From positions 1 to 64,000 of the forward strand of contig CAWBKB010000005.1 of NCBI GenBank assembly GCA_963789265.1: a DNA stretch of 64,000 bases, given 5' to 3'. A model generated the notes under the pieces. The model worked only from the letters and a program-made list of their open reading frames with translations, was not told the DNA's origin and did not search any database. The position numbers were made by a program, and so were the translations under genes. Each line of letters begins with the position of its first letter. The stretch's first letter is position 1. Source of the stretch: an uncultured delta proteobacterium (GTDB lineage Bacteria; Desulfobacterota; Desulfomonilia; Desulfomonilales; Desulfomonilaceae). Shown here in pieces: positions 25,200 through 39,243 of the stretch.

Positions 25200-25365
25200 A
25201 ATCGGGGGGGATTTCTTGACTAAAGGAGCAAGTAGCACTATGATGAATTTTATCCCATCGTTCGACAAAGAACCCGTCATCAGCCTGCAAAGTTCCGGGA
25301 ACTCCGTAGGGTCCCTGAGACTGTTACACATAGCTGACGGCTGCGGAGAATAAGAAGACGCCATT

Positions 25366-26277
25366 ATGAATAGGCGTGAATTCATTATTTCTGTCGGCGC
25401 GGCCGGAATGTTTTCACTGCTCCCTTCGATTCGGCTCCACGCTTTTAGTCCCCCGCGACAACAAGCGGCCGGCGAAGTAGGGCTCAAAGGCCCGTTCGAC
25501 ATTGCATTCGATCCTTCCGGTAATCTTCTGGCCACAGATCCTCCGAGTTATCGCGTAGTCTGTCTCGATGGTTCAAACCGGGAAATTTGGTCGTTCGGAG
25601 CCCCCGGTTCGCAAGCAGGGCGCCTGAATTTTCCTAGAGGTCTGGCAATCGGTCGGGACGGCCTTATCCACGTTGTGGATTCCAATAACTGCCGAATTCA
25701 GGTCTTTGATCGCATGGGGCGGGTTCAGCACATTATTGGTTCCGTCGGGTCCATAGGCGGCTCCTTCTCAACTCCGCAAGGAGTGTTTGTTGACCACTCA
25801 GGAAAGCTTCTGGTGGCTGACACGAGAAACCATCGAATACAGATTTTTCAGAGTGGCAAGCTAGTTGCTGTGCTAGGCGACCTTGGCGACGGAAACGACC
25901 AGTTCAGGCTCCCTACTGCTTCCGCTGTCACATCAGACGGAGAAATCCTGGTACTGGACAGCAAACACGGCCGCATCAAAGTCTTCGGGCAAGACCTCAA
26001 GTTCATACGGAGTTTTGCCGACGCGGGGAAAGACCCCGGCCTGCTCAATATGCCCCAGGGTATGACTCTGGATGCTGCGGGACACGTATGGGTGGCCGAC
26101 ACCGGCAATCATAGAATTCAGGAATTCAGTCCTGAGGGGAAAGTAATATCTGTGCTTGGAAAGCAGGGCTCCGCGGAGGGTCAATTCAGGAACCCTACTG
26201 GCATTGCCTGCCGCGAAGACAGAATTTATGTGGCTGACAACGGGAACGCCAGAATACAGGTACTGGCCCGAAACTGA
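25366..26277 (+). CDS. Tat-exported NHL-repeat six-bladed beta-propeller
   Basis: MNRREFI signal; six P.G/D..D...VAD..NHRIQ.F repeats. Confidence 0.9.
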   Translation: MNRREFIISVGAAGMFSLLPSIRLHAFSPPRQQAAGEVGLKGPFDIAFDPSGNLLATDPPSYRVVCLDGSNREIWSFGAPGSQAGRLNFPRGLAIGRDGLIHVVDSNNCRIQVFDRMGRVQHIIGSVGSIGGSFSTPQGVFVDHSGKLLVADTRNHRIQIFQSGKLVAVLGDLGDGNDQFRLPTASAVTSDGEILVLDSKHGRIKVFGQDLKFIRSFADAGKDPGLLNMPQGMTLDAAGHVWVADTGNHRIQEFSPEGKVISVLGKQGSAEGQFRNPTGIACREDRIYVADNGNARIQVLARN

Positions 26278-26283
26278 GACGTC

Positions 26284-26610
26284 ATGCATATTGAACAAGC
26301 TACAGTGCTTTTTCTGGTGATGGTATTTGCCGCGGCTGAAGTTTATCGCCTGGTACGGGGAAGACGAGGTGTCATCGTTTCCGAGGACGATTCGGGACTT
26401 GCCGGGATCGCCCTTCCTGTGACATCCGTCAAAGTGAGATTGGAATGCGGTGATGAGGTGACGGCCACCATGAACTGTTGCACCGCATGCCTTGGCCGTT
26501 TGAAGATTGGTGACGAGGTTCGCGTCTCGGATTCCAGTGACGGATATGTGGTGGACCTCCCCTGGTTCCGCCGCAGGTCTTGCCACGGCCGAGCTTCCAT
26601 GAGCGATTGA
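26284..26610 (+). CDS. Small membrane-anchored protein with a CCTAC motif
   Basis: N-terminal TM; VRLECGDEVTATMNCCTACLGRLKIGDEVRV looks OB-fold-like. Confidence 0.7.
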   Translation: MHIEQATVLFLVMVFAAAEVYRLVRGRRGVIVSEDDSGLAGIALPVTSVKVRLECGDEVTATMNCCTACLGRLKIGDEVRVSDSSDGYVVDLPWFRRRSCHGRASMSD

Positions 26611-26624
26611 ACTGGAGACATCTG

Positions 26625-28401
26625 TTGGAAATTCTGGGATATATCACGCTTTTCATTTTCTTGGGCCTGATGCTCCTTACGCTATTTGGTTACATACGCA
26701 CTCCGGTTCAGACTGTGTTGGTTATTTCCACGATCCTGTGCCTTCTGGTTGGGGGAGCATTCCGGTACGCCTATTCCGGGTGGAACGCGGTCATGCTTCT
26801 TCCCAATGAATTCCTCGGCGGAATAATCCTGCATCCCATAACCGCTCTGCTTGCAGGTCTGTTTCTCGCGGGAGGGTTGAAGGCGTCCGGTGGGTTCGAG
26901 GCCTTAAAGGTTATTTTACGCTACCTTCGGAAGAGCCCCATCGGTCTTGTGGGCACATTGGTCATCCTGATTAATCTTCCTGTGATCTCCTCTCTACCCT
27001 GCGGTAGGATTCTGGCTGCGGCGCTCTTGCCCCTGTTGTTCACTTTCGGCTTTGAAGGCGGGATGGGGATACTCACGAAATCGCAGCTCATAGTCCTGAT
27101 AGGAGCCTTCACACGTAATGCTATGGGTTCGTGCGGCCCGTCGCCGATCGGCGGTGTGGGACAAATCGGGGAAGGTTTTCTCGGAAGCTTTTTCGCCACC
27201 GCGTCAGACGGGATCCTTCGGGCTCCGCAGGCATTTTCCCTGATGCTGGGCACGGCGATAGTGGCACTGTTCCTTAAATTGGTCAGTCAGCGGCTTTATC
27301 CCAATGACGTCGCTCTTCGAGAAGCTCCGGGCGCCATGCCGGGCGAGGAAAGCACTGAACCTGACATAAACGCGCCCCTTGAAGGCTATCTTGCGTTGAT
27401 CATTTTCGTGCTCTCGCTGCTCATAGCCATATTTCAGCCTTTTGGCAAAATGCCGGTTCAGACGGTCCTCGTGGCCGGCGCGCTGTTAATGATAGTTTTC
27501 TGTCGCATCCGGCTCACTCACCTGATGGAAGGAATTATTCTCTTGCCGGTGACAGCAATGGCCGCAGGTTTTTCTGGCCGCGGGAGCCCTCGCTGCCACC
27601 GGAGGATTTGATGCTCTTGGTGTGCTATTGAATAGCCTTGTAAAAGCCCCGTTTCTTGGTGTTGCCGGGATGCTCGCCATCTTCGTCCAGTTCCAGACTA
27701 TCCTCCCCCTTTCCTGTTCGAGAATCCTCACTGCCGCTCTGGTCCCGGTGCTTTATCTGTTCGGGCCTGCGAAGTTCGGCTTTCTCAACTGGCCGCAACT
27801 GGCGATCGTCATGGCAGCTTACATCATCAATGCCACGACTTCTTGCGGCCCTTCGCCTCTCGGCGGCGGAGGCATGATGGGCGAAGGGACCATGAGGGCC
27901 GAAACCGGGTTCATAAAGGGGGCGTACACCTTCGCTTCCATGGCCATTATGGCGCCATTGGCCGCCATTTATATGAAGTTCCTGAACCTTTCAGTTTTTG
28001 AGCCCTCCAATCCCAACTTTGCCAGGGACATTGTAACAATCGCTGAATTCGCACTCATCATTGTGGGTGTGAACGTCATCTTCATCTACTTCGGCAGTCG
28101 CTTGTTCGGCACCAACGCGTCGAAGAATTTCACTGTTCAGCTTGCGGGATTCCTGCTCAGCGGGGCCATAGGCGGTGGGGTTCTGGCTTTTGCCCTCTTC
28201 GAGTCGAACCCAACAGCAATCATTCAGGGAATCACCGGAGGCGTGATAGCGGCAGCGTTGATCGGGCTCATGGTTCCCAGGACGTTGTCAAGGCAGATGT
28301 CCGTCACGCTGGGTGGGCCTGATTTTGAACCGACAGCCGATCTGGACAAGAGACAGCTACAGCCGGTCATAAGAGAGGCTGGGCGCCAATTACCGGCATG
28401 A
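26625..28401 (+). CDS. Internally duplicated polytopic membrane protein, ion-transporter (IT) superfamily-like; frameshifted at the T5 run ~27569-27573
   Basis: Two homologous halves (PVQTVLV...GIILxP...SCGPSP[I/L]GG.G..GEG). ORFs 26580..27611 and 27622..28401 join if one T is removed. Confidence 0.75.
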
Positions 28402-28424
28402 ACCGGCATTCTTGAGGTGGAGCT

Positions 28425-28577
28425 TTGCTCACGTGGATCATCTTTCTCTTTGTTGGAACCGTTTCCGGAGTGATCATAGCATGGGCACTGGACATGAAGT
28501 CACCAAAGGAGCTCCTTCAGGGGGCTGCCGGGGGATTCATAGCGGGACTGTTGATGGCCGCCATGCTGCCTCATTAG
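28425..28577 (+). CDS. 50-aa two-helix membrane protein (below the ORF-track cutoff)
   Basis: GAGGTGGAG RBS, TTG start: MLTWIIFLFVGTVSGVIIAWALDMKSPKELLQGAAGGFIAGLLMAAMLPH*. Fills the operon gap exactly. Confidence 0.8.
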   Translation: MLTWIIFLFVGTVSGVIIAWALDMKSPKELLQGAAGGFIAGLLMAAMLPH

Positions 28578-28596
28578 GACCGAGACACTGAAACCG

Positions 28597-29136
28597 ATGT
28601 CAGAAGAAAAGACTAGCGAAATAAAGCACAAACGGCAGGATCTCAACCAGCCTATGGTGCTCCCCGGTATCCATCGGTACCAGTTCTTCACCAACCTGAA
28701 GGACCGCGGTTGGACGCTCAATCTTGACCGCATAGCACTATTCGGAATTGTCTCCGCGTTGCTCGCAACGGTGATCAAACCCCTTCTCAAAGGCAATCCG
28801 GCAACCATCTACTGTTATGAATGTCGGGCCTGTTACGCCACTCAGGATCGGTGCCCCGCGGGCATTATGTTTCAGGCTGAGCTAACTGTTGCAGCGCGCG
28901 TCACAGACTATGATCGCTTTATACGCAACGGCGGTCTCAAGTGCGTTCGCTGTGGGAATTGTCAGAGTTATTGCGTTCAAAACCTCCCAACCGCTCAGAT
29001 GTTCGGGACGATGCAGGAAGACACACGCATGGCCATGAGAAAGGGCATTGTGCCTCGTTATTCTCTCAAAAGGGCTATGGATCAGGGGCTGGTAGGAAAG
29101 GAATTTATCGATGACGTGGTCAAAGCTCTTGCGTGA
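28597..29136 (+). CDS. Membrane-associated 4Fe-4S dicluster protein
   Basis: Hydrophobic stretch, then CYECRACYATQDRCP and CVRCGNCQSYC. Confidence 0.8.
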   Translation: MSEEKTSEIKHKRQDLNQPMVLPGIHRYQFFTNLKDRGWTLNLDRIALFGIVSALLATVIKPLLKGNPATIYCYECRACYATQDRCPAGIMFQAELTVAARVTDYDRFIRNGGLKCVRCGNCQSYCVQNLPTAQMFGTMQEDTRMAMRKGIVPRYSLKRAMDQGLVGKEFIDDVVKALA

Positions 29137-29177
29137 TCCTACAGGGTTTTTGTGGAGCGCCCTGACCACGCGCTGGG

Positions 29178-30140
29178 GTGCGCCTCTCGATTTTCCTGAT
29201 CTTGACGGCCGCTCTCTTCCCTTCGAGTAGATTCATACTCACGGTTACTTTGCTGGTCACTCTGGGAATCATGTGGACGAGAGACTACCGGGCCGGCGGC
29301 AGCCCGAATATTTGGTACCTTGCAGCGGCAGTTTGTGTACTTTTCATCGGTTATGGTTTTGCTCGTTTTGATGTGAAGCGGGTTGACGACCTGCGCTATG
29401 CCAAAAGCCCCTGGGCGGCGGGAATCTCCAGAGTCAAAGACGGGACCTATACGGGCTCAGGAGAAGGCTTCCGTGGCCCGATAGAAGTCAAGGTCGAGGT
29501 TGCGAATCATCGCATAACCGACATCCGAACACTCGAATATCCGGATCTGATCTCAGTCAAAGACAATGCCGTAAAGTCGTACCGGGATGAGATCCTCAAG
29601 AAAGGGATGTTGGAGGTTCCCGGTCAGCCCCGAATGTACCGTGGGGCCGAGACAACCTTGACCGGATACGCCGGTGCGATTGAATCCGCTCTCACCAATG
29701 GCATTTCGGATTATCCTCAGTATAGCATCATAACGAGGGTCTTCCTGAACGCGTTCCTGGGAAAGGCTCCGGATCGAGTAACCCTGAACGCGTTGGCGAT
29801 CCTATTTGCAGCGTTTATCGTTTTCGAGTACGCCTTGCAATCCATGCTGACGCCCGGAACCGGACGCTCGATCAACTGCTACAACTGTGCGACCTGCGTG
29901 GGAGCGTGTCCTGTTAAAGAGGCCGAAGGCGTTCAGATACCCATGGGCTTGGTGTTGCTGACAAGACTGGGCGATTACGAAAGGGTAATGGAGCTTTCCA
30001 AATACTGCGTGGGCTGCGGTAGATGCGCTGCAAAGTGTCCCATAGGCAATTCCGGTCCATTGGTCATTTCCGCTGCTTTCCAGGCTTGTCTGAAACAGAG
30101 AAGCACAAAAGAGGCTGTGCGACGCGAGGACACTGCCTGA
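29178..30140 (+). CDS. Membrane protein with FMN-binding domain and C-terminal 4Fe-4S dicluster; start uncertain
   Basis: N-terminal TMs; DGTYTGSGEGFRGPIEVKVEV (FMN_bind-like); TM; CYNCATCVGACP and CVGCGRCAAKCP. Confidence 0.8.
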   Translation: MRLSIFLILTAALFPSSRFILTVTLLVTLGIMWTRDYRAGGSPNIWYLAAAVCVLFIGYGFARFDVKRVDDLRYAKSPWAAGISRVKDGTYTGSGEGFRGPIEVKVEVANHRITDIRTLEYPDLISVKDNAVKSYRDEILKKGMLEVPGQPRMYRGAETTLTGYAGAIESALTNGISDYPQYSIITRVFLNAFLGKAPDRVTLNALAILFAAFIVFEYALQSMLTPGTGRSINCYNCATCVGACPVKEAEGVQIPMGLVLLTRLGDYERVMELSKYCVGCGRCAAKCPIGNSGPLVISAAFQACLKQRSTKEAVRREDTA

Positions 30141-31112
30141 TGGGTCGAGCGCTGTGGTACATCGTGGGCCTAGCTCTGGTAATTCTTGTCGTGGGGGCCG
30201 CCGGAGAGTATTCGCTGCGGAGCACGACCTGCATGGCATGCCACGCCCGAGAAGCCTCTTACGCCCACTGGATGGCCGCACGTCTGAAAGCGAAACACAG
30301 GGGATTTTCTCACGAACTCATCGCTTGTGCCGATTGCCACATTGAAGGGAGCGCGGCAGGGACAGCGACTTCAAGACTACGAGGTTTATTGCACGCTGTG
30401 AGCTATTTTGTGCCACAACTCGATCCTCGACAGCCCCGTGTTGCAGACCTTTTCGACAGGACACGCATTCCAAGCGAGACCTGCGAGGTACTGTCACTAT
30501 GCGGCAATATATCGCAAGAAAGTTTATCTTAGGGACCTTTCTCCCGGCCTCAAGAAGATCGGCCTTGTCATGGATCATCGAAAACACGTGCTCGCACGAG
30601 ACGACACGTGCGCCAAGTGCCACGAACGCTACAAGGAGAAGGGGACTTCCGAAGCGGACAAGACCGTGACGTACACGGAGGTGAATCATCTGGCTTGTGA
30701 TTCTTGCCACGCTTTTGCCTCTCATTCGTACATGGCGGGCCGCATGCTCCCCATGTCTGACCAAGAATACAAGACCGCAAGAAAGGCAGCATGGAGCCGG
30801 CTTTCGACTAATCCGAGATGGATGGTGGCCATGCCGTCTGAGAAGACCTGTCAGCGCTGCCACAACGGCAAAATTCATTACAAGACCAAGATCTTTCTCG
30901 CTGATTGTCGCGGAGACAACAATTTTGAGAACTGTGTCAAGTGCCACCCGCTCATGACGAGGAAGTACTTCGAGAAGCTAAGACGCAGCCGGGGCACAAT
31001 GGCCTCGACTCAAGACCGGGGAAGTAATCGTTCACTAAGTCAGGTTGTCGCCTCATCACGATCCAGTACAAAAGACGAGAAGCTGAGCCAGCACAGCGAG
31101 CAAGAAAATTGA
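30140..31112 (+). CDS. Membrane-anchored multiheme cytochrome c (7 CxxCH; NapC/NirT-like N-terminus), frameshifted near 30485
   Basis: TGATG coupling to the upstream gene; TM; CMACH, CADCH, CxYCH (restored across the shift), CAKCH, CDSCH, CQRCH, CVKCH. Confidence 0.85.
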
Positions 31113-31163
31113 ACTTTGATAGCCTGAAAAGACCATCTGATCTTGTGAACAGGAGCGCATAAA

Positions 31164-31643
31164 ATGGCTACGAAGAGTGATGAGCCCAAAGACAATATCA
31201 ATCGCGAAGTAGCGGACATTATACTCAAGACCAAAGAGCCGCCAGTGGCCAGATTCCGCCTTTTGTCAAAGGGCGTGGAACCCTATCACCGTCTTTACAT
31301 TGTAGACCCTGGGTCAGATATCACAGGTGACAAGGCATGCCTTGCCTGCGGAAACTGCGTAGACTCCTGCCCTGTTTTGCGTAGAGATCCGAAGCGCTTT
31401 GAGAAGACGGAACAGCGTACATCGTTTGCGCTGGAATCCTGTGTGGGGGAAGACTGCGAACAATGCTACTCGTGCATTCTGGCCTGTCCACAGGTAGACA
31501 CGGCTTATAAGGACTACATCGTGGACGAAGTGATTCCGGAGACAATACAGCCTGCTCCGCGGATCACCTCGTTGGACAACTATTTCATGGCGCTCATTGC
31601 CTTGATATTAGGAATTGTTATAGGCGTCTTCGTTGCACGCTAG
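31164..31643 (+). CDS. 4Fe-4S dicluster protein with C-terminal membrane anchor
   Basis: CLACGNCVDSCP, CEQCYSCILACP, C-terminal TM. Confidence 0.85.
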   Translation: MATKSDEPKDNINREVADIILKTKEPPVARFRLLSKGVEPYHRLYIVDPGSDITGDKACLACGNCVDSCPVLRRDPKRFEKTEQRTSFALESCVGEDCEQCYSCILACPQVDTAYKDYIVDEVIPETIQPAPRITSLDNYFMALIALILGIVIGVFVAR

Positions 31644-31654
31644 GGATTTGAAGG

Positions 31655-32476
31655 ATGGATCACGGATTGAGGTCGAAGAAAGGATCAGAGCACATGCCAA
31701 TGCTTGACCAACATCAGGCCGCCCAGGAAATTGCCTTCCCGCCGGAAGCAGCCGAGAGAACCGATCTTGTCCCGATTTTTATCATGGGAAAAAGATATGA
31801 CGTCCCCAGCACGCTAACCATACAGAAGTCATTCGAGTTTGCCGGTTATCAATTGATCCGCGGATGCGGATGCCGGGGCGGAATCTGCGGAGCTTGTGCG
31901 ACGGTTTACCGGATGCCTGACAGCCCTAAGATATATGTGGGTCTAGCGTGCCAAACGGTGGTGCAGCCCAACATGTACCTGGCTATGGTGCCGTTTTTCC
32001 CGGCCAATCGTGCGGTGTACAGCCTTGAAGAGCTGGCCCCCAACGTCAAAACCCTCCTGAAGTATTACCCGGAAATTGCCAAGTGCATGGGTTGCAACAC
32101 ATGCACCAAGTCATGCCCCATGGACATCCCGGTAATGGAATACATTTCCGCCGCGTTGAGAGGCGATCTCGAGAAAGCTGCGGAACTCTCTTTCCCCTGT
32201 GTTATGTGCGGCATCTGCACATCACGCTGCCCCGCGGAACTGGCGCAGTACAACATAGGGATTCTCTGCCGGCGGCTTACGGGGCGGCATATTAACCCAG
32301 CCGCGGCTCATCTTCAGGAAATGATCGGCAGGATAGAATCGGGGCGGTACGAAGAGCCTCTGAACAAGCTCGTCGGCACCGATCCGGAAACACTCCGGAA
32401 ACTCTATGTGGAACGACAAATGGAGCCGCATACCGCGGCCGAAATGTGGCAGCCGGACGATAAACAATGGCTCTAG
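31655..32476 (+). CDS. SdhB/FrdB-like iron-sulfur subunit (2Fe-2S + 2x4Fe-4S)
   Basis: GCGCRGGICGAC...LACQ; CMGCNTCTKSCP; CVMCGICTSRCP. Confidence 0.85.
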   Translation: MDHGLRSKKGSEHMPMLDQHQAAQEIAFPPEAAERTDLVPIFIMGKRYDVPSTLTIQKSFEFAGYQLIRGCGCRGGICGACATVYRMPDSPKIYVGLACQTVVQPNMYLAMVPFFPANRAVYSLEELAPNVKTLLKYYPEIAKCMGCNTCTKSCPMDIPVMEYISAALRGDLEKAAELSFPCVMCGICTSRCPAELAQYNIGILCRRLTGRHINPAAAHLQEMIGRIESGRYEEPLNKLVGTDPETLRKLYVERQMEPHTAAEMWQPDDKQWL

Positions 32477-32777
32477 TGACGTCCGTTACGACAGTTATAG
32501 CAGAAGGAAACCGTTCACTGCGGAGATCGCAGAGGATTTTGTTTTGTGTGGATTTGTCTCAGAACCACAGTGCATGCGGATCTGTCAAAAGGCAAACGAA
32601 CCTCGCATTAATGCACATCTCGCTGGATTGTGCCTCAGCGTATAAGATATTTTTGGTCTCTGCGTTTTCTGCGCATCCCGCGTCTCGCGGGACGGTGAAA
32701 CTTCACTAGAGGTGGACGGTTACAGTGGAAGCTAAGCTTACTCTCAAGATGCATCGCCTTTAAGGCTGGAGGCAATC

Positions 32778-34458
32778 ATGGCATATACGCCGGAATTGAT
32801 GGCGCTAATTAAAAAAGTTGAGAAAACCCGCCCCGAAAGGGTAGCTCGCAAAAAGGCGGGGCAGGAGTTTCCCGCCCTCACCCTGGAAGATCGCCGAATA
32901 CGGTTGGAAAAATACCATCCGGACTTCAGATCCGACGCGCTCCGGGATTTGAAGGTGGGGCCGAGCAAGGGCTATGCAGTAGCACAGGAGATCGCCGACA
33001 CCTTTGAGGCCCGCAGTAGGGTAGACCCTGACAAGATCGACTTGAATGAGGTCCATTACGAAACGGACGTCCTGGTGATCGGCGGAGGAGGGGCGGGAAC
33101 CGCGGCTGCCTTGATTGCTCAAGAGCATGGATCGCGGGTCATCATAGCGACTAAACTTCGACACGGCGATGCCAACACCATGATGGCCGAAGGCGGCATC
33201 CAGGCGGCTACCAAGGGCTGGAAAGATTCACCCTATTACCATTACCTGGATGTAATGGGAGGCGGGCACTTCGAGAACGACACGGCATTGGTCAAGACAA
33301 TGGTAACGGAAGCGCCCAAGGTTATAGGCTGGCTGGAACGTCTTGGTTGCATGTTCAATAAGTGGGATGACGGCAAGCTCTTCACGCTTCACGGGGCCGG
33401 CACATGCCGTAAGAGAATGCACTATGCCGGAGATATGACCGGCGCAGAAATCATGAGGACCCTTCGGGATGAGGCTCGCAATCGTGTCAGCCATATTGGG
33501 GTCCTGGAGTTTTCACCGGCCGTGGAACTGCTCATGGACGACAAAGGCCGGTGTTCCGGAGCGGTATTGTACAACCTCGAGACCGAAGAGTATTTTTTAG
33601 TAAAGGCCAAGGCCGTTGTCATGGCCACCGGCGGGTTCGGGCCGTCTTCACATGCAAGGGTTTATGACTACAAACCATTACGGCGCGACCGGCGATGGTC
33701 TAGTCATGGGATACCGTCTGGGCGTGGAAGTTCGCTTTCTTCATGCCACCCAATACCATCCGACAGGCGCAGTTTTCCCCGAGCAGGCTGAAGGGTTGCT
33801 GATTACTGAAAAGGTTCGAGGTGCAGGCGCGAACCTTGTGAATATCGATGGTGAACAGTTCGTTTTCGAGCGTGAACCGCGGGATATCGAATCATCGAGC
33901 ATAATTCGTGAATGCACAAAGGTCGGCAAAGGCGTTCCGGTTCCGGGACAAGCAAACAAATTCGGAGTGTGGCTGGACTCGCCGATGATCGAGATGCTGG
34001 AAGATAAAGGGACCGTGGAGCGGGAATTTCCGGCCAAGTTCATCCTGTTCAAACGGTACGGGATTGACATCTCGAAGCTTCCGATGCTGATCTATCCCAC
34101 TCTCCACTATCAGAATGGCGGTCTTGCTTACAACTCCGACGGGACCACCACAGTGCCGGGCTTCTTTGTCGCGGGTGAGGTAGGCGGCGGCGTTCATGGG
34201 GCCAACCGGCTCATGGGAAATTCGCTGCTGGACATCACTGTTTTCGGAAGGCTCGCTGGTGAAAGTGCAGGCAAATATGCCGGTGAACGCGCCGACATCG
34301 GCACACTCAGTGTGGAGCACGTCAGAAGGTTCCACAAAGAACTCGAAGAAGCAGGAATCGTAACGGACAGAGTTTCTCCCATGGTGTTGCCGGATTATGG
34401 GAACCCCGAGGTTAAAAAGAGACAGTGGACCACCACCTACGTGGGGACAGTTCGGTAG
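32778..34458 (+). CDS. FrdA/SdhA/NadB-family flavoprotein, frameshifted near 33640
   Basis: VIGGGGAG, NTMMAEGGI, MATGGFG|RL, QYHPTG, LITEKVRG, LHYQNGG, HGANRLMGNSL. Confidence 0.9.
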
Positions 34459-34691
34459 GACCGATCTCCCACAGACCGCAACATGCCGACCATTGGCCTT
34501 GGTTCAGTGTGGTGGCTCTCGAATGAATAGTCGTTATACACCATGCACACTGACAGAGAGTTTAGGTTGGTGGGACAGGCTTCCAGCCTGTCGCTGACGG
34601 ACGGGCAGGATGCCCGTCGCCACCAAAACATTTTCTTTTTCCGCAACTACTTTTGGGGATTCGCTTAAGCAAAGTTGAGATCGTTACAGTA

Positions 34692-35228
34692 ATGCGTGAA
34701 CCAGAAAAGCCCAGCACCCTACACCGAATAGGTGAATACTTCAGCCACCTGCGGGATCCGTCTCCGTACTGGAGAGTTCAGGCTGCCGCGTGGGGGATCA
34801 TTCTAGTTGTCGCCGTAGTCGGAGGCGTGCTCTTCGCTTTTCTGGCGCTTTCTTCAGTCTTAGGAGGCGGGAACATATACTACCGGGCCGTAGGCTCGCC
34901 CGGTCCCGTGGTATTCCGGCACTACAGTCATATCTGGTTCAAGAACGGCAAGTACAAAGACTGTAAGACCTGCCACGATTCCATTTTCGCCACCCAAAAG
35001 TACGGCACCTTCGTGCTCAGGGCATTGAAGGATTCTCCACTCAAAAAAATCCACATAGGGCGGGATGTCTCGACTCTGTACGATCCGGGTTCGGCACCTG
35101 TCGATCTGGCTTCCCTGGCGAGTTACAGCGTGCCGAGAGCCTGTGCAACTTGCGCTACCGGTAAATGCCACGACGGCAAAGAATCTTTTAGCAGATTGGA
35201 GTGCCTGAAATGCCATCAAGCGCACTAG
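34692..35228 (+). CDS. Membrane-anchored c7/c3-like cytochrome c (2-3 hemes)
   Basis: TM; VVFRHYSH; CKTCH; atypical CATCATGKCH; CLKCH. Confidence 0.8.
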   Translation: MREPEKPSTLHRIGEYFSHLRDPSPYWRVQAAAWGIILVVAVVGGVLFAFLALSSVLGGGNIYYRAVGSPGPVVFRHYSHIWFKNGKYKDCKTCHDSIFATQKYGTFVLRALKDSPLKKIHIGRDVSTLYDPGSAPVDLASLASYSVPRACATCATGKCHDGKESFSRLECLKCHQAH

Positions 35229-35265
35229 GTATTCCATTAATCTAGGATGAGAGCCCATATTTCAA

Positions 35266-36024
35266 ATGAGTAAGACTCTTGTGACACAAGGCGGTGTGAT
35301 TCAATCAACGGAGGAAAGACCCAAAGGCATCGCTTCAGGCAGCGCGGCCGACATGTCCAAACCGAAGCGCTGGGGAATGCTGGTGGATCAGCGGAGGTGC
35401 ATAGGCTGCCATAGCTGCACCATCGCTTGCAAGAGCGAAAACAATGTCCCACTGGGGTTCTGGCGCTCATGGGTGAAGGGCATACAAAAGGGGCGCTTCC
35501 CGGACGTTTCCAACCAATTCCTCCGGCGCCTCTGCAACCAGTGCGATGCCCCCCCTTGTGTGCAGGTTTGCCCTGTTCAGGCTACGGTAAGGAGAGAAGA
35601 AGACGGCGTAGTGGTCATGTACTACGGAAAATGCATCGGCTGCGGAATGTGCATCGCCGCATGCCCGTACGACGCCCGGTTCTTTAACCCCATTCGTAAT
35701 ACGGCGGAAAAATGCGATTTTTGCGCACCGCGGATAGATGCGGGACTCCAGCCCGCGTGCGTGGAGGCGTGTGTGTCCGGCGCTCTCGTGTTCGGAAATC
35801 TGGACGATCCTTCGAGCGAGATCTCACGGAAGCTTGTGTCCCTGGGAACGACTGTCCTCAAGCCGGAACTGGGGACCAGGCCCAAGGTATTTTATGTGGC
35901 TGCGGATCACCAGTTGCAGGGGAGAATCAGCTTCTCGGACGATTTCAAAACGGAAATACTCGAATACAGGCGGAGCATCCCAAGTCCTGACGCCTCGTAC
36001 TGGAAGAAAGAGGAAGCCAAATAA
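35266..36024 (+). CDS. Four-cluster Fe-S subunit (TtrB/PsrB/NrfC family)
   Basis: CIGCHSCTIAC, CNQCDAPPCVQVCP, CIGCGMCIAACPY, KCDFC...PACVEAC, GTRPKVFY. Confidence 0.92.
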   Translation: MSKTLVTQGGVIQSTEERPKGIASGSAADMSKPKRWGMLVDQRRCIGCHSCTIACKSENNVPLGFWRSWVKGIQKGRFPDVSNQFLRRLCNQCDAPPCVQVCPVQATVRREEDGVVVMYYGKCIGCGMCIAACPYDARFFNPIRNTAEKCDFCAPRIDAGLQPACVEACVSGALVFGNLDDPSSEISRKLVSLGTTVLKPELGTRPKVFYVAADHQLQGRISFSDDFKTEILEYRRSIPSPDASYWKKEEAK

Positions 36025-36915
36025 ATGGACACAGTGGTTCTCTATAACGTGCCCCATGCAATCCCCTGGAAGATCTACATTCCGCTGTACTTCTACTTTA
36101 CAGGGTTGTCTGCGGGTTCGTTTATTCTCTCCACGCTCTCCACGGTGTTCAAAATTAAGCGCTTCAAGCCGATGGCTCTCCCCGCGGCAATTATCTCGTT
36201 TCTGCTGCTGCTGCTCGCACCTGCCTGTCTTATCCTCGACCTGCATCAGCCCACTCGATTCTGGCACACTCTGGTCCCTGGATATTTCAACAACACTTCC
36301 GCCCTGTCTTACGGGTCCTGGCTTTTGACGGCTTATCCTATTGCCAATCTCATATACATCTATTTCATTTTCGTGAAAAACGATCGGGTGACCAGAATAC
36401 TAGGGATGTTAACCGTCCCGTTGGCCATTTTCGTTCACGCATACACCGGCTTCGCTTTCGCTCTGGTGAGAGCGCGCGCGTGGTGGCATTCCGCGCTTAT
36501 GCCGGGCTATTTTCTTACGTCTGCGCTTCTTTCGGGCATTGCGCTACTCGCTGTGGTGGCCCTGATCATGGACCGATACCGTCAGGAAAAGTTGGACCCG
36601 GAATTGTATTCGAGTCTTCGCGTCATGATGATCGGGATCTTGCTGGTGGACCTGTTTTGGAACGGGAGCTTCTGGTTGACGCTGCTGGTATCGAACGCTG
36701 ACGGGCACGCGTCCATTCTTATGGCACTGCATGAAAAGCTTTATCTATGGGGCGAGGTTGTATCCGGCATGCTTATCCCGCTCACGATTCTTACCCTTCC
36801 GCGAACCGGGAAACAGAAGGTGTGGCTTTGCGTGGCTTCGCTGCTAATCATTGGGGGAGTGTTTCTAATGAGATACTCGGTAGTATTTATAGGCTTTGAC
36901 ATACCGCTAAGCTGA
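36025..36915 (+). CDS. NrfD/PsrC/TtrC-family membrane anchor
   Basis: PWKIYIPLYFYFTGLSAG, LILDLHQPTRF, HAYTG, final TM with MRY; ~8 TMs. Confidence 0.92.
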   Translation: MDTVVLYNVPHAIPWKIYIPLYFYFTGLSAGSFILSTLSTVFKIKRFKPMALPAAIISFLLLLLAPACLILDLHQPTRFWHTLVPGYFNNTSALSYGSWLLTAYPIANLIYIYFIFVKNDRVTRILGMLTVPLAIFVHAYTGFAFALVRARAWWHSALMPGYFLTSALLSGIALLAVVALIMDRYRQEKLDPELYSSLRVMMIGILLVDLFWNGSFWLTLLVSNADGHASILMALHEKLYLWGEVVSGMLIPLTILTLPRTGKQKVWLCVASLLIIGGVFLMRYSVVFIGFDIPLS

Positions 36916-36936
36916 CATGCACAAGTTGAGAAAAAC

Positions 36937-39243
36937 ATGGCTGATGTGACCCGACGAGAATTTCTTCGCCTTGCCGCCTTGATGGGAGGCGCATCCCTAT
37001 TCGCGGGATGCAGTTTCTTTAAAGAGGCCGCGACCGTTCCTGAATATATCGAGGGTGCTCCAGGTGTAGACCCTCTGGAAACCCTCCCTGGCGTAAGAAA
37101 TATCTATACTGTCTGCGGGCTCTGCGCGGGAAACTGCGGGATTTGTTGCAGGGTGGCGCAGGAAACTCTGGTCAAGATCGGCGGCAATCCCTATCACCCT
37201 GTGTCTGCTAACCCCTGCCTCCCCTTTGAAACTCCGCTTAATAAGGCCGCTATACAAAGCGGTAGCGTGTGCGCGGTAGGCGGCAGCGGTATTCAGACAC
37301 TTTACGATCCTTTCAGGATCGCTCGGCCCCTGAAGCGAGTGGGACCGAGAGGCTCGGGAAAGTGGACCGGGATATCCTGGAATCAGGCGCTGACGGAAAT
37401 ATTGGAAGCCGGGGACTTGTTCGGTGAGGGTAATCTGGTCGGTCTCCGTGGGATCAGGCGACAGGAAGGGGGGCTAAAGTTCCTTGCCGGCAGAGCTGAC
37501 TGGGGCGCGCTTACGTTTATAAAGAGATTCTTATCAGGATTTCCCGGCGCAGCGCTGGTTCGCGATGATGAATCTCAAGTGATGGACGCCTCACGCATAA
37601 TTGCGGAACAGGTATTCGGGCCTGGCAAAGGCTCTGTTGATGCGGACTACAGGACCGCTAGCGTGTTGATCAGTTTCGGAGATGCCCCGCTCGACTCCGG
37701 ACTTCCTCTCGCCCTTCCGGCCAGGCAAATTGCAGATGCGAGAGTCAACGGGCCGTGCTTACGTTGGGCCGTGGTGGACCCAAGACTTTCCACCTCCGCG
37801 TCAAAGGCGGACTTATGGATACCGGTCATCCCGGGTAAGGATCATGCCCTGGCTTTGGGGATCATGCGATCTCTCCTGGAACGATATTCCGGAAACGTCC
37901 GGCAACCGGAAGAGAGTCTCACCAACAAAGTTAGGAATGGAACTGTCGAAAGCTACGCAGCGGAATGCGGCATCCCGCGGAGCGTCATCGACAGAATGGC
38001 CGACCTCCTCATCGAAGGCGGCGAGCGTTCCGCGGCAATTCCCGGAAGAGGCATCCTGGCAGGTGCGAACGGGAAAGAAGCCGCGTTGGCTATACTTACT
38101 CTCAACCTGATGGTTGGCTCTGTACCCGGTTCAGGAGGACTTGCTCACAGGAAAGACGATTTTCTCGACCTAGCTTATAGTAAAGTTATGGCCGGGTATG
38201 AATTCAAGGAGCAGGCGCAGACCGACGGCCTATCATCAAAAGCCTTGTTTTTGTGGAACGCGGACCCGGTTTACGATGATCCTGCCATGTCCTCAACATT
38301 AAGAGACAAAGGAGAAGTGCCGCTCTTCGTGGGCATTGATCGACAAATCACCGAAACCACCGCGCTGGCGGACTATATCCTCCCCGACACCACTTATCTT
38401 GAAAGGTGGGATGTCTGTGTCTCGCCACCTTCGGTCACAACGGAAGGGTTCGGTGTGCGCCGTCCTGTAGTGGGGGTGGTTGACCCCAAGACCGGTAAGT
38501 ATTTTCCTGTTCTCTCCGAAACGAGACCGATGGAGGACATTCTTATAAGTTTGGCCGCACCGCTGAATCTGCCTGGTTTCGGTGAAAAAGGGATTGATTC
38601 GTCAGTTCCTCTGCGTACCGGCCGGGATTACTATACATGGTTGCTCTCGGTCATTTTGGGTACGATGAAAAACACGGGCTTGGATGTCTCACCTTCGTCC
38701 AAAGAAGTGGCCAAGGTTTTTGACAGGGGCGGCATCTTCCTATCCTCCAGGAGTTCATCGGTTTCGCCGAAGAGCAAGCCCGATACGGCTTCTCCTATCA
38801 AGCCACAGGAGCCTTTGGGCCGCATGTCATATCCGCCGTTACACTCCGGCGATGACCGGTTTGTCCTTATCACCTACACGTTACCGTTTCATCGAACTGC
38901 GTTATCCGGCATCAACAGTTGGCTCCTGGAAGTCATTCCTCAGAACAGGCTGGTAATCAATTCTCAAGATGCAGCCAAACTCAACATAGTTCAGGGCGGT
39001 TCCGTCTCTATTGAAACCATTGACGGAAAAGCCTCTTTGAAGTGCAAGGCCCAGGTTATGCCGGGGATTAGACCGGGGGTTGTGGCTTTGGCAAAGGGAT
39101 TCGGATATCGGCAGGCAGGTGTCGCGAGACAAATAATTAAGGGCATCGCCACTTCTGAGGATAAGACTCGCGGGGCCGGGGTCAATCCCTCGGTGCTTAT
39201 GCCAGGAAAAGCACCGATCAGGGTCAAAGTGAAACCCGTCTGA
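36937..39243 (+). CDS. Tat-exported molybdopterin oxidoreductase-family subunit, TtrA-like
   Basis: TRREFL with lipobox-like FAGC; CGLCAGNC...C; LKRVGPRGSGKW..ISW, GDLFGEG; ETTALADYILPDTTYLERWD; C-terminal molydop-binding domain. Confidence 0.88.
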   Translation: MADVTRREFLRLAALMGGASLFAGCSFFKEAATVPEYIEGAPGVDPLETLPGVRNIYTVCGLCAGNCGICCRVAQETLVKIGGNPYHPVSANPCLPFETPLNKAAIQSGSVCAVGGSGIQTLYDPFRIARPLKRVGPRGSGKWTGISWNQALTEILEAGDLFGEGNLVGLRGIRRQEGGLKFLAGRADWGALTFIKRFLSGFPGAALVRDDESQVMDASRIIAEQVFGPGKGSVDADYRTASVLISFGDAPLDSGLPLALPARQIADARVNGPCLRWAVVDPRLSTSASKADLWIPVIPGKDHALALGIMRSLLERYSGNVRQPEESLTNKVRNGTVESYAAECGIPRSVIDRMADLLIEGGERSAAIPGRGILAGANGKEAALAILTLNLMVGSVPGSGGLAHRKDDFLDLAYSKVMAGYEFKEQAQTDGLSSKALFLWNADPVYDDPAMSSTLRDKGEVPLFVGIDRQITETTALADYILPDTTYLERWDVCVSPPSVTTEGFGVRRPVVGVVDPKTGKYFPVLSETRPMEDILISLAAPLNLPGFGEKGIDSSVPLRTGRDYYTWLLSVILGTMKNTGLDVSPSSKEVAKVFDRGGIFLSSRSSSVSPKSKPDTASPIKPQEPLGRMSYPPLHSGDDRFVLITYTLPFHRTALSGINSWLLEVIPQNRLVINSQDAAKLNIVQGGSVSIETIDGKASLKCKAQVMPGIRPGVVALAKGFGYRQAGVARQIIKGIATSEDKTRGAGVNPSVLMPGKAPIRVKVKPV

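Follow-up and report, generated by a model that had tools for sequence, protein, structure and literature searches.

Fourteen co-directional genes in the window (the whole 64,000-nucleotide stretch of DNA analysed) may together encode one modular respiratory membrane complex that is near-universal in the Desulfomonilaceae and contains a new membrane module; its activity would be that of a menaquinol or periplasmic-cytochrome:fumarate oxidoreductase. We regard the case for this reading as about evenly balanced. The membrane module includes g03, an undescribed, transporter-shaped membrane protein that occurs elsewhere with dehalogenases and heterodisulfide-reductase-like enzymes. If the reading is true, fumarate reduction by the complex would be charge-separating.

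Gene content and integrity of the cluster

The 14 genes (Table 1) all lie on the + strand, between 25366 and 39243. Their number, order and domain content had been proposed in an initial annotation made from the sequence letters, and Pfam, NCBIfam and open reading frame analyses bear these out at the coordinates claimed. Other particulars of that annotation held less well, namely an FMN_bind call in g06, a 'CCTAC' motif in g02 and a repeat near 34570, and three split frames had gone unmentioned. A search for a direct repeat near 34570 found none; the spacer between g10 and g11 contains a hairpin, not listed by a terminator scan, with a T-rich run beginning about 12-15 nt beyond its 3' side. 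This spacer measures 6-43 nt in 11 of the 14 family loci (full range 6-491 nt, the longest in L015). The start of g07 overlaps the stop of g06; 12 of the 14 loci show such an overlap, of 1-4 nt, and the gap between g12 and g13 is -1 to 6 nt across the 14 loci. Upstream of g01, a promoter-like site with 10/12 matches is the best among seven such sites, a number showing no excess over shuffled sequence (mean 9.4 sites), and is a candidate to be taken as a lead only.

Table 1. Positions and assigned features of the gene cluster
Feature	Position	Strand	Description	Basis
Candidate promoter-like site	25216..25244	+	TTGACT-17-TATGAT, between upstream nitroreductase-family gene and g01	
g01	25366..26277	+	Six-bladed NHL beta-propeller, periplasmic, twin-arginine-type N-terminus (MNRREF...)	Pfam NHL, E 2.5e-44
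g02	26284..26610	+	108 aa	Helix prediction, alignment
g03	26580..28401	+	~570-aa duplicated membrane protein	Frames; profile match from 26625
g04	28425..28577	+	50 aa, two membrane helices	Helix prediction, g03 profile
g05	28597..29136	+	179 aa, one membrane helix and dicluster Fe-S, RnfC-C-terminus-like	Pfam/NCBIfam
g06	29178..30140	+	Three-helix membrane FMN_bind-like/dicluster protein	Pfam, helix prediction
g07	30140..31112	+	Membrane-anchored heptahaem c-type cytochrome, NrfH/NapC-like N-terminus	NCBIfam, CxxCH count
g08	31164..31643	+	2x4Fe-4S ferredoxin, C-terminal membrane anchor	Pfam, helix prediction
g09	31655..32476	+	FrdB-like; 2Fe-2S-type motif and two CxxCxxCxxxCP	dhsB 22 bits, cut-off 88
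g10	32778..34458	+	559-aa FrdA/TfrA-like flavoprotein, 96-aa N-terminal extension	Pfam, NCBIfam
Hairpin	34598..34616	+	7 bp, GACGGGC-AGGAT-GCCCGTC, g10-g11 spacer	Read by eye
g11	34653..35228 (likely start ATG 34692)	+	Membrane-anchored trihaem c7-like cytochrome	Pfam, NCBIfam
g12	35266..36024	+	Four-cluster Fe-S subunit, PsrB/TtrB/DsrO/NrfC type	Pfam Fer4_11
g13	36025..36915	+	NrfD/PsrC-type integral membrane subunit, 296 aa	Pfam NrfD, E 2.8e-40
g14	36937..39243	+	Molybdopterin-oxidoreductase-type subunit, Tat-exported, lipobox	Pfam, NCBIfam

The window sequence breaks three genes, g03, g07 and g10, into two frames apiece. These breaks are single-base assembly insertions, because short-read contigs (X1; one contig per site, depth 3.8-5) are one base shorter at every shift site (27569 in g03, 30487 in g07 and 33636 in g10), all three genes are single open frames in relatives, and the canonical sdhA elsewhere in the genome is split likewise. 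The same contigs also lack one base at 29174, 4 nt before the start of g06. That three of 14 genes are split might otherwise be read as decay, with real frameshifts and g03, g07 and g10 as pseudogenes; we give this practically no credence, given the bases absent from the short-read contigs and the break in the unrelated sdhA of the same assembly. Furthermore, the codons flanking the breaks are 92-97% identical to those of the nearest relative, and in other few-contig assemblies of the genus the breaks hit other genes.

Conservation across three families

The synteny search that had been suggested as a check came out in favour of the cluster. The same 14 genes occur in the same order in all 14 Desulfomonilaceae loci fetched, and all are also present in L043 and, as far as the stretch reaches, in L176, from a closed 6.5-Mb genome. 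A locus from another family (L037) possesses all 14, and one from a third family (L038) has 13, the stretch ending before g14. Across the three families the core proteins are ~70% identical, with adjacency and order retained; the downstream flank of the cluster is not retained beyond the genus. Judged from this sequence conservation, the 14-gene arrangement is more than chance. The g03 gene is found in 67 of the 70 Desulfomonilaceae genomes, representing 25 of the 26 genera, and in 35 of the 36 that are of high quality, but in just 13 of the 401 genomes of a phylum-wide sample.

Over the 14 loci, identity ranges from 49-91% for g01, 74-96% for g04, 80-94% for g03, 80-97% for g08 and 83-98% for g13. 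The catalytic subunit g10 is 84-97% identical across genera, a degree of conservation that g03 equals, and g14 is the least conserved and fastest evolving subunit (47-86%). The g01 gene is also found in L037 and L038, and has no match in the distant Type B loci. In the DNA examined from four distant Frd-type loci (L140, L142, L145 and L163), searches for g01, g02 and g11-g14 found nothing; L140 also has no room for g07 and carries a cytochrome b gene in place of g11-g14. The input module (g07 and g11-g14) would accordingly be an add-on whose physical attachment to the rest is not required.

The reductase core and its haem and iron-sulfur subunits

The flavoprotein g10 aligns to SdhA/FrdA structures (E 7e-66) and retains the catalytic HPT, RG, HY and NRL motifs. 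At the position of the histidine that holds FAD covalently it has asparagine in all 18 sequences compared (14 + 4). Covalent FAD is held to be necessary for succinate oxidation and, as FrdA His44 variants indicate, asparagine at this position fits a reductase and not succinate-oxidising use; g10 therefore fits use as a reductase. In L037 and L038 the alpha and beta genes of a class I fumarase lie directly upstream and co-directional, accompanied in L037 by malic enzyme. The dicarboxylate-like substrate first supposed for the enzyme is thus backed by its catalytic residues and by the upstream fumarase of two other families. A separate canonical SdhAB is encoded in the genome, adjoining citrate synthase.

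Among the remaining subunits, g02 belongs to no Pfam or NCBIfam family, and the supposed 'CCTAC' reduces to CxxC (CT[AL]C), the only invariant motif in the alignment. In g06 a degenerate FMN_bind-like domain follows helix 2 and precedes helix 3, with a 2x4Fe-4S motif at the C-terminus, a topology that would place the former outside and the latter inside. The Fe-S half of its original description stands, whereas FMN_bind reaches 17.3 bits, below the Pfam cut-off of 22; the flavinylation threonine is not conserved in the Desulfomonilaceae, and distant homologues carry the canonical SGAT of the D-x-x-S-G-A-T site. Both cytochromes have an N-terminal anchor followed by haem motifs, seven CxxCH in each of the six g07 orthologues checked (NrfH 30.7 bits, cut-off 134.2) and, in g11, two CxxCH and one CxxxxCH. 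The Fe-S subunit g12 has 16 cysteines and scores below the NCBIfam cut-offs for TtrB (227 against 416), DsrO (197.6 against 200) and NrfC (200.9 against 377.6). Two quinone-type modules, the NrfH-like g07 and the NrfD protein g13, are hard to assign in one complex.

The description of g14 as TtrA-like needs revision. It has a Tat motif and lipobox, and an alignment of 13 sequences shows that the FS0 cysteines and MGD-type motifs are retained, with the Mo-ligand position lacking any conserved residue. Its nearest solved structure is PsrA (2vpw), whose ligand cysteine aligns with a methionine in a variable stretch. Since g14 is without a conserved Mo ligand and evolves fastest, a catalytic Ttr-like module is doubtful; judging by these residues g14 is probably non-catalytic, and resembles Qrc more than Ttr. 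Loss of the cofactor does not follow, given the MGD-type motifs and FS0 cysteines.

A transporter-fold protein with a predicted iron-sulfur partner

The g03 protein consists of two mutually homologous repeats, and in the alignment HPxTA, PCGR and SCGPSPxGG motifs appear in both. It matches no Pfam family at E<=10 and no other sequence family, and its own family is rare (80 matches among 1.84 billion, 1.84e9, cluster representatives). The transporter-like character first noted for it is confirmed at the level of fold: its AF2 model (pLDDT 84.4) has the IT-superfamily fold of the DASS/ArsB type, with VIA-align Z scores of 18.1 to Pho90 (rmsd 4.7, 410 aligned), 16.8 to ArsB and 16.7 to INDY, and Foldseek matches at E 4e-6 to 8e-4. 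Four near-invariant cysteines lie in the model at two hairpin tips and in two broken-helix loops. Down to 25-30% identity these are the most conserved positions, whereas the polar carboxylate-/Na-binding residues are not. Homology links the small g04 with the C-terminal helices of g03 (g03 profile, E about 1e-6 to 1e-8).

Its neighbour g05 has eight cysteines in two 4Fe-4S-type motifs after the membrane helix, and its orientation is ambiguous by the positive-inside rule because the N-terminal tail is K/R-rich. Prediction of the g03+g05 complex gave an ipSAE of 0.63 (runs 0.61-0.64; best of three controls 0.00), a score that is the model's own confidence with custom alignments as input. Of 157 solved complexes, 116 come up to this mark, as do 2 of 215 mismatches; at least 63% of the contacts are common to the runs, with partner pLDDT of at least 72. 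The predicted contacts link g05 cysteine stretches 72-82 and 126-130 with g03 residues 125, 174-188, 366 and 370, and g05 is accordingly modelled as docking at the conserved cysteine loops of g03.

The pairing extends beyond this cluster. A g05-like gene follows the g03-like gene in 31 of the 41 metagenome loci having at least 900 nt downstream. Among 30 loci with enough flank, g03 and its Fe-S set recur with a hybrid RdhA in 15 and with FrdAB in three, and the g03 family recurs also with HdrBC-like, NapH-like and NapH-GltD-like partners. Since its neighbours are homologous Fe-S subunits while the terminal enzymes differ widely, g03 is probably not merely a substrate importer, and we infer a redox or coupling role for its cysteines.

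A proposed complex and its alternatives

The trans-membrane conduit envisaged in the initial annotation fits a gene set with NrfD, haem and Fe-S parts on the periplasmic side and a fumarate-reductase-like enzyme in the cytoplasm. In the complex that we propose, a cytoplasmic fumarate reductase, consisting of the Fe-S protein g09 and the flavoprotein g10 with non-covalent FAD, would be joined to the new membrane module (g03, the small g04 and the membrane-anchored Fe-S proteins g05, g06 and g08) and to a periplasm-facing input formed by the heptahaem g07, the trihaem g11 and the Qrc/Psr-like g12, g13 and g14. The NHL propeller g01 and the CxxC protein g02 would be lineage-specific accessories. 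The NrfD and haem module would oxidise menaquinol or the periplasmic cytochrome pool at the outer face, the g03/Fe-S module would carry electrons inward to FrdAB, and FrdAB would reduce fumarate in the cytoplasm. The direction of electron flow, the use of quinone and electrogenicity are putative features of this model.

The fold matches of g03 include the dicarboxylate carriers VcINDY, INDY, NaDC3 and DiT1, an invariant arginine follows the hairpin cysteine in each repeat (PCGR) and could bind a carboxylate, and the adjoining fumarase suggests that fumarate is the pathway substrate. It is tempting, then, to see g03 as a C4-dicarboxylate (fumarate/succinate) carrier co-expressed with the reductase, like DcuB with FrdABCD, electrons reaching FrdAB via Fe-S proteins and cytochromes only. 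This was essentially the earlier view of g03 as an importer, and we now consider it unlikely. The RdhA, HdrBC-like and NapH-GltD-like partners have unrelated substrates, and a homologous membrane-anchored Fe-S protein follows most members of the g03 family; the predicted interface with g05 lies at cysteine loops that outrank the polar binding residues in conservation, and g03 is conserved like the catalytic subunit.

Nor need the proposed complex run inward. Operating in reverse, it would act as a succinate dehydrogenase driven by the membrane potential, with electrons sent outward from succinate to menaquinone or to periplasmic cytochromes; sulfate reducers and syntrophs require such a reaction to oxidise succinate. 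An inside-to-outside path with quinone reduced outside is the known solution for succinate oxidation with menaquinone (compare the abstract of PMC10308238), and the upstream fumarase and malic enzyme are compatible with either direction, but the asparagine common to all g10 sequences and the canonical 'forward' SdhAB beside citrate synthase make reversal improbable. We would also give a low probability to two independent systems, a fumarate reductase (g01-g10) and a Qrc/Psr-like quinone:cytochrome c module (g11-g14), adjoining through shared regulation or genome conservatism. The hairpin with its T-rich tail, a g10-g11 spacer that can reach several hundred nucleotides and the much faster evolution of g14 speak for such a division, as do distant metagenome loci, L140 with its cytochrome b gene among them, in which the core g03-g10 stands without g01, g02 and g11-g14. 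There the notion of two adjacent units, raised in the initial annotation, is upheld; within the three families the 14 genes stay together, order and adjacency persisting where the downstream flank is lost, and the spacer is short in most loci.

Comparison with known systems

The combination matches no described complex, as first surmised: every NCBIfam equivalog score for the cluster is below its cut-off, and full-text literature searches returned no published description of it. As in FrdABCD, SdhABCD (anchor types A-F) and TfrAB, g10 has FAD_binding_2 with the His/Arg/His/Arg catalytic set and g09 a 2Fe-2S motif with two further cluster motifs; TfrA is the best NCBIfam match of g10, far below cut-off. 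Unlike FrdABCD and SdhABCD, the cluster lacks an anchor of the SdhC/D type, the CCG type or any other type described, its membrane part being an IT-fold protein and three anchored Fe-S proteins, and g10 differs from FrdA/SdhA in its asparagine, its N-terminal extension and the lack of a Succ_DH_flav_C match.

With Qrc, alternative complex III and Psr/Ttr/Phs, g11-g14 share a c-type cytochrome, a four-cluster Fe-S protein, an NrfD protein and a Tat-exported molybdopterin-type subunit. The ligand position is not conserved in g14, as is also reported for QrcB. All scores are nevertheless below cut-off (QrcB 122.8 against 440, QrcC 125.7 against 400, QrcD 37 against 570, TtrA 253.7 against 1750) and, unlike Qrc, the cytochrome is trihaem and the gene order A-C-D-B.

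Rnf and Na+-NQR offer a working analogy only. RnfA/E and NqrD/E hold an intramembrane 2Fe-2S cluster, RnfG/NqrC an FMN_bind domain and RnfC Fe-S clusters; the present cluster would likewise combine a pseudo-symmetric membrane part, whose repeats have two cysteines each, with RnfC-like diclusters in the cytoplasm and an FMN_bind-type domain in the periplasm. However, g03 has an IT-superfamily fold and is unrelated in sequence to RnfA/D/E, in the Desulfomonilaceae the FMN site is degenerate, and the cluster has no NADH or ferredoxin entry subunit. With the DASS/ArsB/Pho90 elevators, g03 residues 1-456 share a fold of two helical hairpins and two broken helices. DASS carriers have Ser-Asn-Thr motifs where g03, to judge from secondary structure, has PCGR and SCGPSP; three extra C-terminal helices and the genomic tie to Fe-S proteins also set g03 apart from the elevators.

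Like the flavinylated trans-membrane electron carriers of the NapH, NosR and RdhC (PceC) type, g06 joins membrane helices to outward FMN_bind-type and inward Fe-S motifs; unlike them, it has no Fer4_5 (PF12801) match and in the Desulfomonilaceae has lost the flavinylation threonine. The five trans-membrane carrier classes set out in passages of Meheust et al. 2021 (PMC8238504) include the IT fold in none. Hybrid RdhA enzymes that carry membrane helices at the N-terminus (Atashgahi 2019, PMC6797604) are the type that adjoins g03-like and Fe-S genes in G376, in G458 and in no fewer than 15 metagenome loci; the passages of that paper on these enzymes leave neighbouring genes unmentioned ('gene cluster', 'ferredoxin' and 'transporter' 0 times each). 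Unlike those loci, the present cluster has an FrdAB-like terminal enzyme.

Conservation and integrity of the cluster

The fourteen genes follow one another in the order originally described (see the table below), between flanks of unrelated housekeeping genes. Synteny across Desulfobacterota, which had been put forward as a check on the cluster, bears it out: all fourteen recur in the same order in the Desulfomonilaceae, the family in which the source names of close homologues place this genome, at every one of 14 loci fetched (one per genome), and again in loci L043 and L176 and in other families. Identity across the 14 loci is 82-97% for g10, 73-94% for g03, 83-98% for g13 and 80-97% for g08, and is lower for g14 (47-86%) and g01 (49-91%); the core of the cluster is thus unusually highly conserved. 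The g03 profile matches 67 of 70 Desulfomonilaceae genomes; by genus the count is 25 of 26, and among high-quality genomes 35 of 36. Completeness of the three unmatched genomes is 96%, 99% and 89%. In a phylum-wide sample it matched 13 of 401 genomes, five of which fall outside the family: G053 has all 14 genes (locus L037), G277 has g01-g13 on a fetched stretch that ends at g13 (L038), G425 has g02-g09 on a 6.7-kb contig, G376 has two distant g03 copies, and G378 is the fifth. Core proteins of G053, G277 and G425 are about 70% identical to those of the window. A scan with two narrow peptide patterns, which by their narrowness have no bearing on wider absence, returned 64 loci, all in Desulfomonilaceae-like records; by record titles, the family is common in anoxic soils, lake sediments and groundwater.

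Genes of the cluster and other located features (window positions unless a locus or a contig is named; G000, the window's own genome; L, loci)
Feature	Position	Strand	Description
Cluster g01-g14	25366-39243	+	fourteen genes
g01		+	Tat-type NHL propeller
g02		+	108-aa protein, one membrane helix
g03		+	large membrane protein, two homologous repeats
g04		+	50-aa protein, two helices
g05		+	one helix; eight Cys in two 4Fe-4S motifs
g06		+	three helices; FMN_bind-like domain and C-terminal dicluster motif
g07		+	cytochrome, N-terminal anchor, seven CxxCH
g08		+	ferredoxin, C-terminal anchor
g09		+	FrdB-like
g10		+	FrdA/TfrA-like
g11		+	trihaem cytochrome, anchored
g12		+	four-cluster Fe-S protein
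g13		+	NrfD
g14		+	molybdopterin-type subunit, Tat-exported, lipobox
Nitroreductase-family gene	24486-25199	+	166 nt 5' of g01
Terminase-like ORF	12353-12934	+	193 aa; phage terminase small-subunit and HTH families (PF10668, E 1.2e-17)
Single-base differences	27569, 30487, 33636		one base fewer in short-read contigs (one contig each, depth 3.8-5)
Single-base difference	29174		just 5' of g06; one base fewer (one contig, depth 3.8-5)
Canonical sdhA	G000:C1:2089976-2091143 (L108 5398-7159)	-	beside sdhB and citrate synthase; two frames
Second TfrA-like/FrdB-like pair	G000:C4:133015-134790 and neighbours (L109 3148-5790)	-	soluble; 591 aa and 281 aa
Cytochrome b/b6-type gene	L140 9355-10086	+	PF00033, E 7e-42; directly 3' of g10 homologue
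DsbA/thioredoxin-like gene	L162 440-1660	+	PCYCGC domain; about 5 kb 5' of HdrC/HdrB-like and split g03-like set
Rdh-type locus	G458:C1:889000-906000 (L175)		distant g03-like gene, two hybrid RdhA-like genes, three Fe-S proteins, 142-aa membrane protein

The genes are tightly spaced: in 12 of the 14 loci there is an overlap of 1-4 nt between g06 and g07, and g12 and g13 lie -1 to 6 nt apart. The long spacers to which the initial annotation had drawn attention, g09-g10 and g10-g11, are not conserved features, since their lengths range from 9 to 323 nt and from 6 to 491 nt; the repeat near 34570, at which the cluster might have been divided, could not be recovered by a direct-repeat search there. 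Neither promoter-like sites (7, shuffle mean 9.4, sd 3.7) nor terminator-like sites (23, shuffle mean 17.6, sd 4.2) were clearly above shuffles. The nitroreductase-family gene upstream of g01 is present in 13 of the 15 Desulfomonilaceae loci tabulated (L017 is cut at a contig end and L024 lacks the gene) and in L176; it is missing from that position in two other families, where fumarase takes its place, and may be a lineage-specific fifteenth member. The downstream flank is kept only within the genus. Elsewhere in the window, the terminase-like ORF is surrounded by housekeeping genes (prmA-like, isocitrate dehydrogenase).

The window sequence spreads g03, g07 and g10 over two frames each. These genes are single frames in relatives, short-read contigs have one base fewer at the positions tabulated (in a run containing 65% of sampled words), and other few-contig assemblies of the genus show breaks in other cluster genes. 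Because the canonical sdhA, elsewhere in the genome, is also split, single-base indel errors are genome-wide in the 9-contig G000 assembly, and genes called on it will come out in fragments. On all these grounds the frame breaks are assembly errors, and the organism almost certainly has all 14 genes intact. We reject a pseudogene reading of g03, g07 and g10 as the short-read contigs lack the extra bases; that the cluster is decaying in this organism, as the broken frames might suggest, is scarcely credible.

Fold of g03 and its predicted contact with g05

The sequence of g03 belongs to a very small family. It matched no Pfam family at E<=10, its profile matched no PDB sequence at E<=10, and only 80 of 1.84 billion cluster representatives match that profile. 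Each repeat carries HPxTA, PCGR and SCGPSPxGG motifs, in which the four cysteines are the best-conserved positions of the protein, down to 25-30% identity. Assessed against the described sequence families of the IT superfamily (Na_sulph_symp, CitMHS, ArsB and others), g03 falls in none, and a single relative, P0200, touches CitMHS at E 9e-4, under the cut-off.

A first AF2 model from 11 close sequences was too poor (pLDDT 47.8) and was replaced by one from a 37-row alignment (pLDDT 84.4, pTM 0.86). In the latter, residues 1-456 form an IT-superfamily elevator-transporter fold, composed of a scaffold and a transport domain with two hairpins and two broken helices. VIA-align returned 11 IT-superfamily chains at Z 18.1 to 11.3 with 373-417 residues aligned, including Pho90 (Z 18.1, rmsd 4.7, 410 aligned), ArsB (16.8), INDY (16.7), DiT1 (15.6) and VcINDY (13.8), and Foldseek gave E 4e-6 to 8e-4 with TM 0.50-0.64; the transporter-like nature first ascribed to g03 is thus upheld at the level of the modelled fold. 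By the secondary structure of the model, one conserved cysteine lies at the tip of each helical hairpin (Cys126, Cys364) and one in the loop of each broken helix (Cys170, Cys407); in DASS carriers these elements make up the substrate and ion site. Beyond this fold the model has three more helices, to which g04 shows homology. Some half-size relatives of g03 (P0139, P0144, P0149, P0200) carry N-terminal fusions to a right-handed beta-helix (NosD-like) or to CARDB; domains of both kinds are typically found on the cell exterior.

Modelling of subunit pairs, likewise proposed at the outset, predicted that g03 binds g05. With alignments A2 and A5 the pair scored an ipSAE of 0.63 (three runs, 0.61-0.64; best of three controls, 0.00), a value that expresses the model's own confidence with custom alignments and is no measurement; among solved complexes 116 of 157 attain this mark, and among mismatched pairs 2 of 215. 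Contacts agree between runs to at least 63%, and partner pLDDT is at least 72. In the prediction the g05 helix packs against g03 helices, and the g05 cysteine stretches 72-82 and 126-130 touch g03 at 125, 174-188, 366 and 370, adjoining three of its four conserved cysteines.

Genomic contexts of g03 relatives

Distant relatives of g03 were traced in G376, in 65 metagenome loci scanned with an 8-row alignment (A4), and in the closed genome G458. In Type A loci, present in G376 and G458 and making up 15 of the 30 metagenome loci with enough flank, one to three hybrid RdhA with N-terminal membrane helices (PDB 4ras, E 1e-34; PceA, E 2e-17) precede a g03-like gene, which is accompanied by a g05-like gene and by genes for two additional Fe-S proteins and for a membrane protein of 142 aa. 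Type B loci contain the run g03-g04-g05-g06-(gap)-g08-g09-g10, in which g10 is about 60% and g03 38-40% identical to the window's; within the available DNA they contain no match to g01, g02 or g11-g14. In one of these, L140, there is no space for g07, and the cytochrome b/b6-type gene occupies the place that g11-g14 have in Desulfomonilaceae. In this lineage the slot after the reductase thus holds a membrane redox module of another kind, and both modules are presumably quinone-reactive.

The archaeal-looking loci of Type C combine g03-like and g05-like genes with more Fe-S proteins, NapH-like, HdrC-/HdrB(CCG)-like and DsbD_2 proteins, and Type D loci have two half-size g03-like genes with HdrC/HdrB-like genes before or a NapH-GltD-like fusion after them. 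Of the 41 loci with at least 900 nt of downstream DNA, 31 have a g05-like gene no more than 1.2 kb after the g03-like one; the Type D loci examined are among the other ten. Fumarate, organohalides and disulfides have no transport need in common. Common to the contexts is a membrane-anchored Fe-S chain ending in a cytoplasm-facing reductase. Type C clusters L117 and L123 end in DsbD_2 genes, and L162 encodes a DsbA/thioredoxin-like protein; this thiol-disulfide theme may bear on the role of the g03 cysteines. The closed 6.5-Mb Desulfomonilaceae genome G458 holds both the Rdh-type locus L175 and the full 14-gene cluster (L176).

The fumarate reductase-like enzyme

The intact g10 orthologue matches FAD_binding_2 (PF00890, E 5.1e-69, profile positions 1-414) over its full length, and in the window two halves match; Succ_DH_flav_C was not found in the orthologue in Pfam at E<=10, and there is a 96-aa N-terminal extension. 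Solved structures of SdhA/FrdA and of flavocytochrome c3 can be aligned with g10 (best match 7d6v_A, E 7e-66), and the motifs HPT, RG, HY and NRL, which hold the catalytic His/Arg/His/Arg, are kept in the alignment to 7d6v_A and in 14 orthologues, HPT and NRL also in 4 distant relatives. At the position of the histidine that binds 8-alpha-FAD covalently, all 18 of 18 sequences have Asn (GD[AS]NT[MVI]MAEGG). Judged by the behaviour of FrdA His44 variants, the Asn in g10 speaks for fumarate reduction rather than succinate oxidation. The TfrA equivalog was scored on the window's split halves (150.5 and 172.4 bits against a cut-off of 718), and g09 reached 22 bits against a cut-off of 88 for TIGR00384 (dhsB). 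Beside a 2Fe-2S-type motif, g09 has two CxxCxxCxxxCP motifs; as both are complete, its third cluster is probably 4Fe-4S.

In L037 and L038 the genes directly 5' of g01, and co-directional with it, encode class I fumarase alpha and beta, L037 having malic enzyme upstream as well, and this adjacency ties the cluster to fumarate. The same neighbourhood agrees with fumarate as the substrate of g10 and speaks against an AprA- or NadB-like identity. Both identities were rejected on model scores also: NadB models fall below TfrA/Sdh models, and no AprA model is among the best 25 of 65 for the N-terminal half or the best 25 of 28 for the C-terminal half. Since G000 also encodes canonical SdhAB beside citrate synthase and a second TfrAB-like pair, g09/g10 is an extra, specialised enzyme. 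The second pair has no obvious membrane partners and adjoins a FabT-like regulator gene.

The outer modules

Under the Pfam cut-off of 22 bits, g06 scores 17.3 for FMN_bind, and its flavinylation site [ST]GA[TS] is not kept, with E, I, K, T, T, P and V at the Thr position in seven sequences. Type B loci keep the canonical D-A-[IV]-S-G-A-T site. The Thr position is variable in Desulfomonilaceae and L038, and because it is in these lineages that heptahaem g07 is translationally coupled to g06, haems may there have replaced FMN. g07 does not reach the NapC/NirT/NrfH models (TIGR03153, 30.7 against 134.2; PF03264, E 0.067); it has the N-terminal architecture of NrfH/NapC quinol dehydrogenases, a helix followed by CxxCH at residue 31.

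The composition of g11-g14 is of Qrc/ACIII/Psr type, with all equivalog scores under the cut-off. The Ttr-like module of the initial annotation is doubtful: g14, g12 and g13 score 253.7 against 1750, 227.1 against 416 and 51.1 against 314 for TtrABC. Qrc scores also fall short (QrcB 122.8 against 440, QrcC 125.7 against 400, QrcD 37 against 570), and QrcA is hexahaem whereas g11 has three haem motifs. Among solved structures g14 is closest to PsrA; as we read the alignment, the Mo ligand of PsrA, Cys173, falls opposite a Met, within a segment that is variable across 13 orthologues, and a conserved Cys/Sec/Ser/Asp ligand, as in the catalytic Mo/W-bisPGD enzymes (Psr/Ttr/Phs/Arr), is absent from these 13. 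The FS0 cysteines and MGD-type motifs are invariant among them, and some members of the Mo/W-bisPGD family have no protein ligand to Mo, so cofactor loss is not implied. In these respects g14 resembles a non-catalytic subunit of Qrc type more closely than it does a tetrathionate reductase.

Discussion

Taken together, our findings are consistent with a charge-separating fumarate reductase fed from the outer face through the g03 module, a reading that we hold with about even confidence. The electron donor on the outer face would be either menaquinol, oxidised at g13 and/or g07, or periplasmic cytochromes, delivering to g11 and g07. From there the g03/g04/g05/g06/g08 module would carry the electrons inward to g09/g10, which would reduce fumarate in the cytoplasm. 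The same machine could run in reverse, as a succinate dehydrogenase driven by the membrane potential; the Asn at the covalent-FAD position points the other way, and we consider reversal improbable. Equally improbable is that the cluster comprises two adjacent, independent units: Type B loci do show the reductase without g11-g14, and the spacer at g10-g11 can be long, yet the fourteen-gene order is kept in every family locus fetched and the spacer can be as short as 6 nt. The fold of g03 would fit a plain dicarboxylate carrier; this alternative, unlikely but somewhat less so than the other two, must be set against the recurrence of g03 relatives beside reductases of such different substrates and against the predicted docking of g05.

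There is an appreciable chance, though less than even, that the g03 family represents a new class of trans-membrane electron carrier whose module is reused across reductases. In such a carrier, modelled as an elevator-type protein of IT fold, the four invariant cysteines would either bind an Fe-S cluster or form a redox-active dithiol pair, in a site loaded by the docked cytoplasmic 4Fe-4S protein g05 and either shuttled or wired to the outer face, possibly with coupled ion translocation. Bacteria and archaea would then reuse the module for fumarate reductase, membrane-anchored RdhA and Hdr-like disulfide reductases.

Should the charge-separating reading hold, Desulfomonilaceae would reduce fumarate via an architecture outside the described complex II anchor types, and could conserve energy by charge separation in doing so. 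Furthermore, on this reading a very rare, unnamed membrane family would be the common partner of three unrelated cytoplasm-facing reductases. The 'Outstanding questions' of PMC6797604 ask for the electron source of hybrid membrane-anchored RdhA and whether these enzymes respire, and the g03 module would bear on both. Since G458 has both Frd-type and Rdh-type clusters, both questions could be approached in one organism, provided that a cultured strain is alike.

The initial annotation did not recognise this combination of genes, and our search agrees: full-text searches of the openly available articles returned no description of the 14-gene cluster or of the g03 family. The parts of PMC8238504 available to us distinguish five classes of trans-membrane carriers, with the g03 module not among them, and the available parts of the hybrid-RdhA paper PMC6797604, of PMC12090745 and of PMC9012536 make no mention of it. 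The module of g03, g04 and anchored Fe-S proteins has no described counterpart, and no described system has the whole set. As a working analogy, the four conserved cysteines of g03 may be compared with those of an intramembrane Fe-S carrier of the Rnf/Nqr type, in which four Cys from two homologous halves ligate a single cluster in mid-membrane. Every part of the cluster has a known relative, and the whole is kin to the modular respiratory complexes and to the fumarate reductases of complex II type.
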